Shown here: positions 6,699 through 22,105 of the stretch, piece by piece
How positions within the stretch are numbered: the stretch's first letter is position 1
Layout: each line of letters starts with the position of its first letter
Origin: Candidatus Thorarchaeota archaeon
Lineage (GTDB): Archaea > Asgardarchaeota > Thorarchaeia > Thorarchaeales > Thorarchaeaceae
Direction of reading: 5' to 3'
DNA length: 22,105 nucleotides
Assembly: GCA_016839605.1 (NCBI GenBank)
Contig: JAEOTX010000188.1
Span: forward strand, 1-22,105
Made by a program: the position numbers and the translations under genes
Notes under the pieces: model-generated
Told to the model about the DNA's origin: nothing
Databases searched by the model: none
Seen by the model: only the letters and a program-made list of their open reading frames with translations

Positions 6699-7696
6699 TG
6701 GCGAATGCTATTCTCGAAACTAAGAATCTCAAAAAGTGGTTTACAGTGAGAGCAGGATTCCTCTCAAGCCTCGTTTCCAAGAAGTCTGACTCCTACATTC
6801 GAGCCGTTGATGGAGTCGACCTGGAAATCAAGCAAGGTGAGGTTTTTGGCATTGCAGGGGAGAGTGGTTGTGGAAAGACTACAATTGCAAGATTAGTTAT
6901 GCGATTGGAAACCTTAACAGATGGGGAAATCTGGTTTGAGGGAGAAAAAATCTCTGCATTCAATGAGGGGAAGTTCAAGGAGTATCGCAGAAGGATACAG
7001 ATGATCTTTCAAGATCCATATGGGTCATTGAGCAATAGCATGACCATAGGCGAGATTGTCGCAGAGCCTCTCAAGATCCATAATGTATATGCATCACCTA
7101 GTGAGATGGAGGACCGAGTAATGGCTGCCCTCGAAGACGTGGGGCTGCGTCCAGCTGAAGAGTTTGCTGGCAGGATACCACATGAACTGAGTGGAGGTCA
7201 AAGGCAACGGGTTGCGGTAGCTGCAGCACTTGTGTTGGATCCAGTCCTTCTGATTGCAGATGAACCAGTTTCAATGCTCGATGTCTCAATGCGGGGCCAG
7301 ATCCTGAAGCTATTGCTCGAGCTGAGGGAAAAGAAGGGCATTACGCTTGTATTGATAACACACAATTTGGCTGTAGCCAAGCAGATGTCTGACAGAATCG
7401 CAATCGCCTATCTGGGCAGAATCGTTGAAACTGGAGTTACGAAGGAGATTATTGACAACCCAAGTCATCCCTACACGAAAGCACTAGTTTCAGTTGTTCC
7501 TGTTCCAGAAACGGGTGTAAAGAGGGAGAGACTGTTGCTCACAGGAGAGATTCCTAGTCCCATTGATATTCCAACGGGCTGTAGATTTCATACCAGATGT
7601 CCATTTGCGAAAGACAAATGCAGCGTGGAGGAACCTGAGCTAAGGACAATGCCAGATGGACGACAGGTTGCCTGCCACGACGATGAGCAGGCATGA
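6698..7696 (+). CDS. oppF: Oligopeptide/dipeptide ABC transporter ATP-binding subunit (DppF/OppF)
   Basis: GESGCGKTT, QMIFQDPY, LSGGQRQR, IADEPVSMLD, HPYT, CRFHTRCP; TAATG stop/start overlap with the preceding gene. Confidence 0.95.
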   Translation: MANAILETKNLKKWFTVRAGFLSSLVSKKSDSYIRAVDGVDLEIKQGEVFGIAGESGCGKTTIARLVMRLETLTDGEIWFEGEKISAFNEGKFKEYRRRIQMIFQDPYGSLSNSMTIGEIVAEPLKIHNVYASPSEMEDRVMAALEDVGLRPAEEFAGRIPHELSGGQRQRVAVAAALVLDPVLLIADEPVSMLDVSMRGQILKLLLELREKKGITLVLITHNLAVAKQMSDRIAIAYLGRIVETGVTKEIIDNPSHPYTKALVSVVPVPETGVKRERLLLTGEIPSPIDIPTGCRFHTRCPFAKDKCSVEEPELRTMPDGRQVACHDDEQA

Positions 7697-15980: not shown

Positions 15981-18900
15981 TCATCCTGACGTCGCATACT
16001 TGACGAAATCCTCAGCGAGCACACGATCAAGTGTTTTCGCAAAGAACTCAGCGTTCTCTCTGGTGAATACAAGAGGGGGTTTGATCTTGAGGACATTATT
16101 GAAGGGACCATCCGTGCTTATCAGAATCCCCAAGTCTTTCATGCGATTGGCGACATACCTCGCCTGTTCCGTTGCAGGAGTTAGAATCTCATGGTTGAGG
16201 ACTAGCTCCACTCCAATGAATAGGCCAAGTCCTCTGACATCACCGATGATCTTGTGTTTCTTCTTCAAGATGTATAACTGGTCAATCAGGTAGGCACCGA
16301 CTTGGTGTGCGTTCTTTTGAAGGTCTTCCTCTTCTATTTCATCAAGGACCGCCATCCCAACAGCACATGACACTGTATTTCCGCCAGTAGTGCTAAAGAA
16401 CTCCATCCCAGTATTGAAGGACTCTGCAATCTCGGGTGTTGTTATGACAGCACCTAGTGGATGGCCATTTCCAATCGGTTTGCCAAGAGTTACGATGTCA
16501 GGAACAACGCCCTGTGTTTCAAAGCCCCAAAAGTGACTGCCAACCCGTCCGAATCCCACCTGCACTTCGTCTACGATGCATACTCCTCCAGCATCGCGAA
16601 CATAACCAAACGCATCTCGGAGATAGTTCTCAGGAAATATGATTTGACCAGCGCATCCCATCAGGGGCTCACAGATGAAAGCCGCCACTCCCTTTTCTTT
16701 ACCCAAGTCAAGAGTCTTCTTTAGAACGTCCATAGCGTATTTCTCACCGGCTTCCGGATTATCAGACTTGAAAAGGCCTCGATAGACATCGGGCGTCTTC
16801 ACCTTGTGAACATGTGGGGGAGCACCCTCACCCCCGGGTCCATCGAACTTGTATGGGCTGATGCCCACAAGGGTGCCTGTGTTTCCATGATAGGCACCAT
16901 CAATCACAATCAATTCGGTCTGCCTGGTGTGCGCATATGCCAGCCTAAGCGCGAGCTCGTTGGCTTCGCTACCACTATTGACAAAGAAACAAACACTCAG
17001 AGGATCTGGCATCTTGCTACAAAGCCGTTCTGCGTATCTCACTAAGTTTTCGTGAAGATACCTAGTGTTGGTGTTCAATACTCTCGCTTGGCGTATGAGT
17101 GAGGCTACCACCCTTGGATTGGAGTGACCTACATGGGGGACGTTATTTCGACCATCCAAGTATTGCTTGCCATTCGCATCATAGAGATATTGCATCTCGC
17201 CGCGGACAATATGGAGTGGTTCATCGTACGCAGTTCTAAGAGACTTGCCAATGTAACTCTGGCGAGCCTCCAAGACTGTCATTGTATCCATAGGAACCAA
17301 AATACGATCTTCTGGTAGTTGCAGGATAACGTTTGGATCCGGACAAATACTTAGCCACACTTCTCTCATACTTGCAGGAGCAACACCGAAGAAATCACCT
17401 TCTTTGTCGAGCATGTCTACAATCAGTTGAAAGTGCAAATGAGGCGGCCATCCGCCGTTTTCCGGGTACGATCCTACTTCACCAATCTTTTTGCCCTTCC
17501 TTATCTCGTCGCCCTTAGTCAGGCCTATAAGAGATCCCTTAGTCAGATGCGCATATAGTGTGTAGAATTTCAGGTCAGTGAAACCCGCGTCGTGCTCCAG
17601 AATTATTGTAGGCCCGTTGTCTAGGGGCAAATCGTTATCCTTGAGACTATGAACCGTCCCATCAAGTGGAGCCATGATCTGCGTTCCAGGCTCTAGTATT
17701 AAGTCAGTAGCAATGTGAACAGTCCTCGACTCCCCTGCGGGATTCAAATATTGCTCACCAGCATAGATCAGTCTGGCTTCATTGTATCTGGCAATGCCAA
17801 ACTTTGCCTCTCCCTCAGATATCCCTCGCGACATAATGGCTGAAAACTTATCGATGTCAGTTAGGTCAGAGGTTTTCTCGATCTCAAGGCTGCCAACACT
17901 GAGGTCTATCACTGTGAAGGGAGCCTTTCGAATGTCAAATTCAATTAGCGGGCCTATATCCCTAGCATTCTCTCTTAGCCACTCGACAACTTTCTCACTG
18001 TTGACGCATGGTGGTAGACCACACGCTTGACGGAACGCATATGATGCGAATCTAGGATGAACTTCCATAAGGCGCTGCAGGAGATCCCAGACGTTCTCCT
18101 GACTTATGAGCAGATATTTGTTATCGGGCTCCAGTTGTGTCTGATACCCCGCAATTGCAATACTTGTAGCGAGTCTAGCCAGAATTAGAGGGAAGAGGAG
18201 CTCGATCTCGGTCTCGGTCAAAGGGTAGTTGGAATGATAGCCCTCAACAATCTTAGATGCAGCTCCTATTGGATCCGCCTTGCCCAATAATGCATATGCA
18301 ATCGCCACAGCGAGCTCATTGATAGTATGAGTCAACACCATATCACCAAAGTCCAGAATGCCAAACCGAGCCTCCTCGGGGGAATAGGCATTTGAAACAA
18401 GGACATTGTAGTCATTTGCATCATTGTGGATAACACTAGTTCTGAGGTCAGGCATACGTGGAACAGCCAAAGTATCATAGATTGACATGACGTAATCTAT
18501 AGCTTTGGCCTTTTCAGAATCTTTGACGTACTCCTTGTACTTCTCTATCACTGAACTAGCTAGTTTGAGATCCCAATAGAACATCCTCTTTGCAGAGGGA
18601 TGGGAAAAGCCCTCAAAGCCACAGGTCAGGGCGCCAATAAATTCTCCATATTCTTTCAAAAGGCCAGGTGAGTGCGGTTTTAGCTCGGCGAATAACATAC
18701 CTGGTAGATACCGCAAGAGTCTCACAAGATGTTCGTTCTTCTTGGAGTCTTTCAGGGTGAGAATCTCGTCACCGTCCTTGGACAAGACAAAGCGAGGAAC
18801 ATTGAATGGGATATTCTTGTCAGCCAAGTGCTGCATGGCTCGGTGCTGCATATCCAAGATTTCGCGAGTTTCAGATTTGGCGGCAATTTTCAAAACGTAT

Positions 18901-19049
18901 TCGTCGCCGAAGTCCGTTCGAATGTAAAAGTTCAGATCACGTTCACCTGGAAGCTCCTTGACAGAACCTTTCACTCCGAATTTGGTCTCAGCAATCTTCC
19001 GTGCTTCCTCATCTGTGAATCGAGGACGATTGGTATCTCGTTCGAACAT
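15981..19049 (-). CDS. Three-domain fusion: APH/hydroxylysine-kinase-like phosphotransferase + M23 peptidase-like domain + class III PLP aminotransferase/phospho-lyase (1022 aa)
   Basis: Kinase: [28 protein letters not shown]23: HIATD (HxxxD), YTLYAHL, PPHLHFQ (HxH). Class III aminotransferase: [77 protein letters not shown]. Confidence 0.92.
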
Positions 19050-20122: not shown

Positions 20123-21478
20123 TCACGCTGGTTGTTCTTCTGAAGCTTTACTCTTCGCAAATGACGGAATAGAATTAGGTGCGAGTTCACCGTCCATCAA
20201 TGCTCCATAGGCGCCCATGTCAAAATGCCCGTGGCCGGAAAGGTTGAACACTATGACTCGTTCTTTGCCAGCCTTCTTGGCATCCCGTGCTGCATCAATA
20301 GCAGCCTTGACTGCAAAGGCAGACTCTGGAGCAGGGATAATGCCCTCAGCCTTCGCAAAGACAAGCGCGGTTTCTAGAACAGGAATCTGATCATAAGCAA
20401 TTGCACGAATCCGACCCTCGTTGAGAAGTGCGCTTATACTGGGCGCAACTCCGTGATATCTAAGTCCACCAGCATGGATTGGTGGTGGTGTGAAGTCTTT
20501 ACCCAGGCTATACATCTTGACCATGGGGGTCATTCCTGCAGTGTCGCCAAAGTCATACTTGAACTCGCCCTTCGTCATTGATGGACAGGCAGTTGGCTCC
20601 ACGCCTACGAAATCAGTCGCCTCAAATCGACCATCTGCAATAAAGGGGTAGGCCATTCCGGCAAAGTTGCTGCCGCCTCCTACACAGCCGATGATTGCAT
20701 CGGGCATCACGTCATCCTTCTCTAGCTGTAAGATTGTTTCTTGCCCAATCACTGATTGGTGAAGCAGAACATGATTCAGTACGGACCCAATAGTGTATTT
20801 CGTGTCATCGTTAGCCACGGTATCTTCAATGGCCTCGCTTATCGCGATGCCCAGTGTGCCTGGATGGTCGGGATTCTCGGCTCTAACCTTCTTCCCAAAT
20901 TTCGTCCTATCAGATGGACTTGGAACTATCTCAGCCCCATAAGATCGCATCATGGTTCCACGATATCCTTTCTGCTCCAAGCTTACTCGCACCATATACA
21001 CCATTGCTTTTAGCCCGAAGTGAGCACAAGAGAGAGCTACGGCACTTCCCCATTGACCTGCACCGGTTTCAGTGGCATATCTGGCAACGCCCTCGTTCTT
21101 TGCATAATATGCTTGCGCCAATGCAGTGTTGAGTTTGTGGCTGCCTGTGGGCGATGCATCCTCACGCTTGTAATAGATGCGCGCCGGGGTGTTCAAGGCT
21201 GCCTCTAGCCCAACCGCTCTCTGAAGCGGTGTAGGGCGACCGTACATCTGGTAAGCCTCTCGGACTTCTTCAGGTATCGGCACGGTTTTTTCCGTCGCCA
21301 CTTCTTGCTTCACACACTCAACAGCAAAGAGTGCCATCAGCGCCTCAGGACCGATAGGTTCTCCTGTCCCTGGATTCAGGGGAGGGGCCAGGGGCTCTTT
21401 GAGGTGGGGCAAGATGTTGACGTAATGTTTCGGTACTTCATCTAGGTCCAATAGGACCCTACTAGCTTTTCTAGTCAA
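20123..21478 (-). CDS. trpB2: Tryptophan synthase beta chain 2 (TrpB2), PLP-dependent
   Basis: TrpB2-type N-terminal extension (VPKHYVNILPHL..PL.PPLNPGT), GRPTPLQRA, SPTGSHKLNTALAQAYY (PLP Lys), TETGAGQWG, GSVLNHVLLHQ, GCVGGGSNF, IHAGGLRYHG, EGIIPAPES, FNLSGHG. TTG start with GGAG upstream. No trpA neighbour. Confidence 0.96.
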   Translation of the reverse strand: MTRKASRVLLDLDEVPKHYVNILPHLKEPLAPPLNPGTGEPIGPEALMALFAVECVKQEVATEKTVPIPEEVREAYQMYGRPTPLQRAVGLEAALNTPARIYYKREDASPTGSHKLNTALAQAYYAKNEGVARYATETGAGQWGSAVALSCAHFGLKAMVYMVRVSLEQKGYRGTMMRSYGAEIVPSPSDRTKFGKKVRAENPDHPGTLGIAISEAIEDTVANDDTKYTIGSVLNHVLLHQSVIGQETILQLEKDDVMPDAIIGCVGGGSNFAGMAYPFIADGRFEATDFVGVEPTACPSMTKGEFKYDFGDTAGMTPMVKMYSLGKDFTPPPIHAGGLRYHGVAPSISALLNEGRIRAIAYDQIPVLETALVFAKAEGIIPAPESAFAVKAAIDAARDAKKAGKERVIVFNLSGHGHFDMGAYGALMDGELAPNSIPSFAKSKASEEQPA

Positions 21479-21534
21479 CTCTATACTCTCCGTTTTTTGT
21501 TATATCAAATGGCCCTCTCCCCTGATTTTGGCGA

Positions 21535-21681
21535 GGAAGCTGCTGACACAGTCTGAATGACAATGAGTCAGCAATTCCAAGAAAACAAGTCGGTGCTTGC
21601 GTTGAGCGTGCGATATATGGAATATTCGCTAGGTGGGCCTCTCTCGGCCCGCGATCCATTGGCAATAACGCACGCTCATCG
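21535..21681 (-). promoter_or_regulatory. Structured 5' leader of trpB2 (two hairpins, intervening U-rich tract)
   Basis: Hairpin 1 (21678-21603): UGAGCGUGCG/CGCACGCUCA, AUGGA/UCCAU, UCGC/GCGA, GGGCC-GAGAGA-GGCCC. U-rich CUUGUUUUCUU at ~21589-21579. Hairpin 2: UGCUGAC/GUCAGCA (21573-21541), extendable with GGAA/UUCC. Confidence 0.65.
21629..21679 (-). CDS. Putative Trp-containing leader peptide (uORF) MSVRYCQWIAGRERPT
   Basis: ATG 21679 to TAG 21631-21629. Preceded 4 nt upstream by AGGATGTGA, the same 9-mer that precedes the ABC binding-protein start. UGG at codon 8 (21658-21656). Confidence 0.5.
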   Translation of the reverse strand: MSVRYCQWIAGRERPT

Positions 21682-21725
21682 TTTCACATCCTATGGAAAG
21701 GGTTATCCATCGCGCGCATCATTCC

Positions 21726-21780: not shown

Positions 21781-22105
21781 TTAGAGGCTTCTGAGCATCA
21801 GAGTATCAAGATATGTATCCATGGCGAACATGGTCAGGGTCCGATCCACTGCTGGCATCTCACGAAGTGAGTCAACGATGAAGTTGTTCATCTCTTGAAC
21901 ATCCTTCGCTCTCACTTTCAGAAGCACATCGAACTCACCACTCAGAACATGGACCTCCTGTACGAATGGATGCTGAGTGATTTCTTCACAGAATTCACGC
22001 TGAGAAATGACCTTTCTACTCCCCGGCACCCGATAGCGAATAGTAATGAGGATTAGGGCCAAAGTAGGACGACCAAGTTTTACGGGATTGAGGACTGCAG
22101 TGAAT
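21781..22105 (-). CDS. Lrp/AsnC-family transcriptional regulator (C-terminal RAM domain; 5' truncated by window)
   Basis: Frame is open to the window edge: FTAVLNPVKLGRPTLALILI...HPFVQEVHVLSGEFDVLLKVRAKDVQEMNNFIVDSLREMPAVDRTLT, the typical Lrp linker and effector domain. Confidence 0.9.
   Translation of the reverse strand, partial: FTAVLNPVKLGRPTLALILITIRYRVPGSRKVISQREFCEEITQHPFVQEVHVLSGEFDVLLKVRAKDVQEMNNFIVDSLREMPAVDRTLTMFAMDTYLDTLMLRSL

Follow-up and report, generated by a model that had tools for sequence, protein, structure and literature searches.

A trpB2 leader with two overlapping upstream reading frames as a candidate ribosome-mediated tryptophan sensor in Thorarchaeota

Can the leader of an archaeal tryptophan gene gauge tryptophan (Trp) supply through the ribosomes that translate it? 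The question is raised by the region upstream of trpB2 in a metagenome-assembled genome of a Thorarchaeota (Asgard) archaeon, 80% complete (GCA_016839605.1), of which we analysed a stretch of 22,105 nucleotides (nt) of contig JAEOTX010000188.1, referred to here as the window; the leader and its gene lie on the minus strand. Ribosome-based sensing of amino-acid supply through leader peptides is a textbook mechanism in bacteria. The characterised trp control in archaea is exerted by DNA-binding proteins (PMC6737238), and full-text searches of the open literature found no paper on leader-peptide control in archaea. The original prediction, made from the window's sequence, proposed ribosome-coupled Trp sensing at this locus by a short Trp-containing upstream open reading frame (uORF) buried in a hairpin. 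The core of that proposal is strongly supported by conservation, but a second, longer uORF and a long-range helix had been missed. The comparisons presented here strongly support the view that the leader senses an amino acid through leader ORFs, in an archaeal form in which two uORFs make up an unusual relay. The gene itself (trpB2, 20123..21478, TTG start at 21478, 451 amino acids) encodes a TrpB2-type enzyme, i.e. a TrpB-like pyridoxal phosphate enzyme matching Pfam PALP, and its product scores 653.8 bits against NCBIfam NF009057 (cut-off 366) and 613 against TIGR01415 (cut-off 518.85).

The first of the two frames, uORF1 (21629..21679), starts with an ATG at 21679 and runs for 16 codons to a TAG stop (21631-21629). 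It is led by a Shine-Dalgarno (SD) sequence, AGGATGTGA (21684..21692), of which 8 of 9 positions are complementary to the 3' end of the organism's own 16S rRNA (...AUCACCUCCUA); as first reported, a further copy, the only one in the window, occurs at 936-944. The features originally listed all proved to lie at the coordinates given for them. The single Trp codon, UGG (21656..21658), which we refer to as the sensor codon, is invariant and lies within helix P2 of the hairpin described below, 5 nt upstream of helix P3. The uORF1 consensus reads Met, 5-8 residues, Gln-Trp, 2 residues, Gly, 3 residues, Pro, 1 residue and stop. Across all leaders the CCAATGG that holds the Gln-Trp codons is invariant, the Gln codon being always CAA and never CAG, and the codon after it always UGG and never UGY; in some genera a second UGG follows two codons after the first.

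This arrangement is kept in relatives. TrpB2 homologues were taken from 40 of them and the DNA upstream was read. In all 17 upstream regions with enough sequence, which had been picked by TrpB2 homology alone, uORF1 was found with its in-frame start, SD-like element and Gln-Trp codons, and the same short ORF was present in every additional leader inspected. The SD-like element lies 4-9 nt upstream of the start in most relatives and is weak in a few. The start is in frame with the UGG in all leaders despite upstream indels; the conserved RNA block GAGCGTGC, which forms the 5' arm of helix P1, is read in one frame in the window's own genus and in a different frame in other genera, and a 3-nt insertion in the P3 loop of locus L088 preserves the frame. 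Because this conserved block sits in different frames, the N-terminal part of the uORF1 peptide is not conserved across lineages. The stop, usually TAG and 8 codons after the Trp codon, is more variable and is shifted by +4, +6, +13 or -7 codons in four lineages in which the rest of the leader is kept. The in-frame start with its SD-like element despite the differing frames of GAGCGTGC, the L088 insertion and the CAA and UGG invariance together suggest that uORF1 is under coding constraint and is translated.

An exact, fixed-length pattern of the leader invariants was further scanned over 185,579 species, one genome each, a scan in which we estimate that about 4 matches would be expected by chance. 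It matched 38 contigs, mostly labelled Thorarchaeota or Promethearchaeota, the others being a few labelled 'uncultured archaeon' and one Hermodarchaeota. Wherever the contig continued far enough, in 33 of 33 cases, trpB2 followed the motif at a distance of 150-215 nt. The motif was seen once per genome. The motif was present in 47 of 86 genomes of the family, and within the window's own genus its presence follows that of trpB2 where both were searched. Over 151 genomes of the phylum, a covariance model of the hairpin found no match outside Thorarchaeaceae. A repeat or mobile element was rejected, as the own genome has a single copy of the leader. The recovery of uORF1 in 17/17 regions and in the further leaders, together with the compensatory changes in the hairpin given below, indicates conservation far beyond chance.

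The leader RNA is strongly structured. For the 251-nt leader the predicted folding energy is -84.4 kcal/mol (z = -3.9), a value matched by none of 200 shuffles. Folding and the covariance model place the uORF1 start, the sensor codon and the start of the second frame within a three-tier hairpin (21604..21677), composed of an outer stem P1 (21677-21669 with 21612-21604), a middle stem P2 (AUGGA/UCCAU, 5' strand 21659-21655) that holds the UGG, and an apical stem P3 (GGGCC/GGCCC, 21650-21646 with 21639-21635). The long hairpin and the position of UGG in the AUGGA/UCCAU helix had both been predicted; the fold reproduces them and compensatory changes support them. The same three tiers appear in nearly all leaders folded singly, with P3 as GGGYCC/GGRCCC, and in 20 of 40 leaders the 5' arm matches the stretch that follows the uORF1 stop better than shuffles do (p<=0.05). 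When 47 matches were aligned to the covariance model, which had been seeded from the own-genus alignment, 89% of cells were paired, versus 79.5% in shuffles and 30-47% with slid partners, in an alignment that is itself fitted to the structure. Changes on both sides occurred in 13 of 22 hairpin pairs (113 cells), a level reached by none of 500 shuffles, so that covariation supports the hairpin. P3 is near-universal, with 99.6% of cells paired, and locus L089 carries an extra double change in it (GGCUCC/GGAGCC). MAFFT with RNAalifold over all 40 leaders recovered P3 alone, because the 3' arms shift. What varies is the loops and junctions; what is invariant is the codons and the stems.

The second frame, uORF2 (21471..21659), has its ATG at 21659-21657, composed of the last base of CAA and the UG of UGG within the invariant CCAATGG, and runs for 62 codons to a TAG at 21473-21471, so that its end overlaps the trpB2 TTG by 8 nt in the window (TTGACTAG). 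In the 36 full-length leaders this frame is open for 57-85 codons in every case, whereas the other two frames end after 5-50. Its stop falls between -20 and +32 nt of the trpB2 start in 32 of the 36 and as far as +62 in two more. The junctions with trpB2 include ATGA (9 leaders), TGATG or TAGATG (2), an 8-nt overlap (10, the window among them) and a gap of 3-7 nt (7), and exceptional leaders have the stop at +17 to +62 or -20 to -84. When each leader was shuffled with its dinucleotides preserved, the frame remained open over the same distance in about 10% of trials; after clustering of the leaders into 10 groups (downstream similarity of at most 60% between clusters, against a random baseline of up to 58%), uORF2 was open in 8 of the 10, and the product of chance values is about 1e-8. 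The uORF2 peptide is not conserved and the underlying sequence is fast-evolving. Even so, TGG was counted only 7 times in the uORF2 frame against about 23 expected, and 20 and 39 times in the other frames; TGY is not depleted there, and most of the few TGG codons stand at the very end, over the trpB2 SD. The open frame beyond chance, the clustering of stops at the trpB2 start and the TGG depletion suggest that uORF2 is translated, and the depletion of Trp codons fits a frame that needs to be readable under Trp scarcity.

No canonical SD precedes uORF2. An SD-like GAGYGUG, of the same type as the uORF1 SD of other genera, lies in the P1 arm and is buried in the hairpin with both uORF starts. 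The gene downstream has its own SD, GGAGAG (21486..21491), complementary to the 16S 3' end, and nearly all relatives have a GGAG 6-9 nt ahead of the start codon. In Haloferax, ATGA and TGATG overlaps give strict termination-reinitiation coupling (PMC6728339, PMC10666635), and with its coupling-type overlaps of this kind uORF2 looks like a conduit that would hand ribosomes to trpB2.

Two further helices extend the fold beyond the hairpin. The 5' strand of P0 (21695..21712, core ACCCUUUCC) lies at the predicted mRNA 5' end and pairs with a 3' strand at 21507..21527, whose core GGAGAGGG (21520-21513) is 28 nt upstream of the trpB2 start and through which uORF2 runs. The pairing is better than in shuffles (p<=0.05) in 23 of 36 leaders, with obvious compensatory changes between genera, and as a covarying long-range helix P0 closes the whole leader of about 230 nt into a two-domain fold. 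The other helix, P4, involves the pyrimidine/U-rich tract TTGTTTTCTT (21579..21588) located 3' of the hairpin, a possible pause or termination signal. This tract, as 5' strand, pairs with a purine-rich segment near the P0 3' strand at p<=0.05 in 14 of 30 leaders, with compensatory changes; in the own genus this holds for L009 and L010 only. The U-rich tract and the second hairpin named in the original prediction exist, but the tract appears to be mainly one strand of the conserved helix P4; neither a clear terminator nor above-chance pairing with the trpB2 ribosome-binding site (RBS) was found. A role of the tract as an anti-RBS for trpB2 was rejected, as duplex energies were about those of shuffles (median z about 0).

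We think it rather probable that the leader is a ribosome-mediated Trp sensor that operates through two overlapping uORFs and termination-reinitiation, while the direction (sign) of control and the transcriptional component are what we infer. The wiring we prefer, in which a stall leads to uORF2 translation and turns trpB2 on, is based on the Trp-poor uORF2, the coupling-type overlaps and the expected homeostatic logic. A ribosome would load on uORF1 while the leader is being transcribed. When charged tRNA-Trp is scarce it would pause with UGG in the A site, against the GC-rich P3 that begins 5 nt downstream, and would prevent the large hairpin from forming, whereby pausing or termination at the hairpin and pyrimidine tract would be avoided. 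As the ribosome moves on, the uORF2 start region and the GAGYGUG of the P1 arm would be left unpaired, and the Trp-poor uORF2 would be translated through P4 and P0, passing ribosomes to trpB2 by termination-reinitiation and yielding more TrpB2. When Trp is plentiful, uORF1 would be finished fast, the hairpin would close over both starts, P0 would shut the leader and expression would be low. In folding calculations, a ribosome placed at the uORF1 stop raises the exposure of the uORF2 start from 0.35 to 0.58. Progressive masking of the uORF1 RBS in a lengthening transcript was rejected, as the trend was modest (0.47 to 0.41 to 0.33).

Several observations weigh against this sensor and its wiring. 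The sensor is a single Trp codon (two in some genera), as opposed to the tandem codons of classic attenuators. When it stalls on UGG, a ribosome covers the uORF2 AUG as well, and thus simple geometry does not explain how a stall would lead to more uORF2 initiation; the opposite wiring, with uORF2 blocked by the stall, is no less simple. When UGG is masked by a ribosome, equilibrium folding leaves the accessibility of the trpB2 RBS unchanged (0.60 versus 0.56), for which reason stall-dependent unmasking of that RBS was rejected, and a search for a conserved alternative (antiterminator) partner for the freed 3' arm found none, the rest of the fold remaining unchanged. As for termination, archaeal intrinsic terminators usually have T runs of at least 5. 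In most leaders the base of the hairpin is followed by a T/C-rich 10-mer, but runs of that length occur in only a few, and a simple scan of the leader for bacterial-type terminators found none. The pairing figures come from an alignment fitted to the structure, and the TGG depletion was counted over related sequences. Lastly, coupling in Haloferax decays within about 20 nt, and post-termination scanning over about 20 nt is inefficient (PMC10666635); a back-scan from the uORF1 stop to the uORF2 AUG would on that analogy be unlikely, and coupling agrees poorly with the uORF2 stops that some lineages have at +17 to +62 or -42 to -47.

The most probable of the competing explanations uses the same parts with the opposite wiring, and we regard it as unlikely. 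Ribosome traffic on uORF2 would repress trpB2 by occlusion, passing over its SD and start or ending on them, as in Bacillus subtilis rtpLP or the second uORF of ATF4. When Trp is plentiful, uORF1 ribosomes would open the hairpin, uORF2 would be read and trpB2 blocked, whereas when Trp is scarce the ribosome at UGG would sit on the uORF2 AUG, uORF2 would be silent and trpB2 would be read from its own SD. Geometry favours this arrangement, as the stalled ribosome must cover the overlapping AUG, and its homeostatic logic needs no extra assumptions. Moreover, trpB2 brings a GGAG of its own, and its RBS is largely free of pairing when the leader is folded (mean 0.60); in about 9 leaders uORF2 ends inside trpB2 (+17 to +62), which suits occlusion over reinitiation. 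However, a uORF2 read only under plentiful Trp does not predict its depletion of Trp codons, and the stops gather at ATGA, TGATG and near-adjacent sites that are typical of positive coupling (PMC6728339). Furthermore, uORF2 lacks a strong SD and starts within the hairpin, so that it may carry too few ribosomes for a good RBS to be occluded.

It is also conceivable, at a similarly low or slightly lower probability, that the ribosome changes frame in place. A ribosome starved at the uORF1 UGG would itself enter the uORF2 frame, either by a -1 shift, after which the A site reads AUG, or by drop-off of the short peptidyl-tRNA and re-initiation on the overlapping AUG, and would then be delivered to trpB2 by termination-reinitiation. 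If true, Trp shortage would be converted directly into TrpB2 synthesis with no alternative RNA fold, which again satisfies homeostatic logic. The frames are suited to such a switch, since uORF2 is offset by exactly -1 from the uORF1 frame where the hungry codon lies, lacks a canonical SD and is depleted in Trp codons. Sites of the dnaX type for -1 shifting have a tripartite layout, and here GAGYGUG 6-8 nt upstream and a hairpin downstream reproduce it, the near-universal, stable GC hairpin P3 standing 5 nt after the A-site codon, within the dnaX-type spacing of 5-9 nt. The codons themselves argue otherwise: all leaders have C-CAA-UGG, which is not a slippery X-XXY-YYZ heptamer, re-pairing of tRNA-Gln on CCA would have a middle mismatch, and the easily slippery A-AAA-UGG has been adopted in no lineage. 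The invariant A that forms the AUG speaks for a genuine start codon, and such a switch has no known precedent in archaea.

An arrest peptide like TnaC, in which the nascent uORF1 peptide (Trp...Gly...Pro-x-stop) and free Trp would block release at the stop and the arrested ribosome would control what lies downstream, is improbable. The analogy had been drawn in the original prediction, and the Trp, the Pro one residue before the stop and the fixed 8-codon distance from Trp to stop in most leaders agree with it. It weakens on comparison, as the four lineages with displaced stops (+4, +6, +13 or -7 codons) break the spacing while UGG, the uORF2 AUG and uORF2 are kept; the N-terminal part of the peptide is not conserved, the Gly and Pro codons that are kept form the two strands of P3 and covary as RNA, TnaC D16 has no Asp counterpart here and the Pro is followed by one more residue. 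Least credible of all is the reading in which a protein or small ligand binds the structured RNA, as at a repressor site or in a riboswitch-like element, and the frames are incidental, for while the extensive conserved structure of P0, P1-P3 and P4 with its covariation and the Lrp/AsnC gene adjoining in part of the genus would suit it, the loops and junctions are variable, the invariant bases are codons and stems, no Rfam family matches, and structure alone leaves unexplained the in-frame start, the frame-keeping indels, the 60-codon open frame in 8 of 10 clusters and the depletion of Trp codons.

Rfam had been named as a check on the leader, and no family reached the gathering threshold. The only matches at E<=10 were weak C/D-box snoRNA hits, two of three on the opposite strand, and were judged to be chance; one of them, at 21492-21564 (+), scored 22 bits where 58 are needed. 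A search of the leader for tRNA and tmRNA gave no match.

Upstream of the leader, the promoter may add a second layer of control. The TATA box TTTATAAA lies at 21733-21726, with TTTATA/TTTAAATA at the equivalent position in relatives, and from the usual archaeal spacing transcription of trpB2 is predicted to start near 21705-21700; a scan for a sigma-70 promoter at the leader gave no match. An internal promoter nearer the gene, at 21507-21500, had been put forward as an alternative. TGATATAA is indeed present there, but it is kept within the genus only, being absent in L011 and in other genera, and the uORF2 frame reads through it, so that this alternative is disfavoured. Two TGTACA boxes, 20 bp apart (21771-21766 and 21751-21746), abut the upstream side of the TATA box, and 2-3 TGTACA-like boxes with a phasing of about 10-11 bp are found upstream of TATA in most relatives' trpB2 leaders and trp-operon promoters. 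We take TGTACA to be the TRP-box consensus. TrpY controls trpB2 in Methanothermobacter. The TRP boxes are bound by TrpY of Methanothermobacter thermautotrophicus (PMC6737238), and the TGTACA pair is likely a putative operator for a TrpY-like repressor, which would act as a separate layer, like TrpR in Escherichia coli.

The association between short uORFs and Trp genes extends beyond trpB2. Four family members that have a trp operon (L070-L073) carry in front of it a distinct, conserved uORF with one Trp codon, and two other Asgard families have Trp-rich uORFs before trpB2; together these strengthen the link between Trp codons and Trp genes. In L070 (about 7490-7560), L071, L072 and L073, the uORF is SD-led, 16-20 codons long, has its one Trp near the end and stands before trpE. 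Relative to the uORF, trpE lies in the +1 frame, which is open back to the ATGA of the uORF; in L070 this frame contains no ATG, GTG or TTG before the conserved TrpE N-terminus, and substitutions look synonymous in it. A hungry-codon +1 shift or a non-canonical start may be involved, and the trpE uORF may be a sister device of a frame switch at trpB2. In the other two Asgard families, the uORFs of L021 and L023 (about 215 nt upstream of trpB2) and L022 (about 320 nt) are 45-66 codons long with 3-4 Trp in the last 10, and in L021 and L023 the uORF start lies inside CCTTGGAATGG, which resembles the Thorarchaeal CCTTGGCCAATGG.

The role of the gene gives the leader its context. In the own genome, given its 80% completeness, trpA, trpC and trpE were searched for and none was detected, trpB2 being the sole Trp-pathway gene found, and indole-3-glycerol phosphate synthase scores above its cut-off in just 4 of 41 family genomes; it is therefore probable that trpB2 works on its own, as a step of indole salvage. 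On the minus strand, the order is an Lrp/AsnC-family gene (ending at 21781), a 302-nt spacer and trpB2. The window holds the 3' part of this gene (21781..22104, Pfam AsnC_trans_reg), a candidate local regulator, of which a full-length relative in L004 has an AsnC-type helix-turn-helix and a ligand-binding domain; its linkage to trpB2 is limited to part of the genus and is not kept beyond. Downstream of trpB2, a gene at 15981-19049 (-) encodes a 1022-aa fusion of an aminoglycoside-phosphotransferase-like kinase with M23 peptidase and class-III aminotransferase domains, and between the two lie a PNPOx-like gene and a 130-aa ORF that has no Pfam match. Another genome (G009) has two trpB2 copies (L006 and L088), 86% and 69% identical to the window trpB2, each with its own leader and of differing genus types, which points to the gene and leader having been duplicated or transferred as one unit. 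The own 16S gene (contig C82), whose 3' end (L074:1470-1500) was compared with the SD sequences, spans 2131 nt against a 1478-position model, with about 28 extra nt at its 3' end between ...GGCTGGAT and the terminal ATCACCTCCTA; the extra nucleotides are probably rRNA introns or inserts.

Asgard archaea are the closest prokaryotic relatives of eukaryotes. If the proposed sensor is true, they gauge an amino acid by translating upstream ORFs, and the leader bears on translation-coupled gene control in archaea, on archaeal reinitiation and on whether uORF logic predates eukaryotes. The comparative signal is strong enough for clean point mutants.

Known systems share individual features with this leader. 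The enterobacterial trpL leader (RF00513) likewise consists of a short SD-led ORF with a codon for the amino acid whose pathway it precedes, embedded in a conserved RNA structure, with a pyrimidine/U tract after a hairpin and a repressor layer at the promoter. It differs in its tandem Trp codons, where here there is one (two in some genera), and in its 2:3 antiterminator alternative and oligo-U terminator, of which no equivalent or clear equivalent was found here, nor any match to the Rfam family; in addition, the Thorarchaeal leader has a second, long uORF that begins on the sensor codon and ends on the gene start, and its host is an archaeon that lacks Rho. At the promoter, the phased TGTACA boxes resemble the TrpY/TRP-box system of M. 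thermautotrophicus, which however acts on DNA and not on the leader and would form a parallel layer, so that repressor and leader together would parallel E. coli TrpR with attenuation. The TnaC leader of the E. coli tna operon also has a single Trp, essential in TnaC, in a short peptide with a Pro near the stop, but here the spacing and the peptide are not conserved, the conserved codons are explained by RNA pairing, and the regulated gene is biosynthetic where that of TnaC is catabolic.

The second uORF finds its parallels elsewhere. In the anti-TRAP locus rtpLP-rtpA of B. subtilis, charged tRNA-Trp sets the position of the leader ribosome and this decides access to the downstream start, the leader ORF ending beside the SD and start of the regulated gene; its Trp codons, however, stand in the ORF that ends at the SD, whereas here that ORF is Trp-poor and the Trp lies in a separate uORF. 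Archaeal coupled gene pairs (Huber et al., PMC6728339, PMC10666635) show the same ATGA, TGATG or few-base overlaps and an SD inside the upstream frame, but the upstream partner here is a non-conserved leader frame and not a protein gene, the overlap in the window is 8 nt with a TTG start, and some lineages have distances that nearly abolish coupling in Haloferax. In the amino-acid-responsive ATF4 and GCN4 mRNAs, too, a short uORF precedes a longer one, of about 60 codons, which extends up to or across the main start in another frame, although here uORF2 starts inside uORF1, initiation is SD-based and gives no sign of scanning, and a codon takes the place of eIF2 phosphorylation as the sensor. 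The layout as a whole differs from that of every described attenuator: the Trp codon of a short sensor uORF shares bases with the start codon of a second, long uORF, and the latter ends on the main start.

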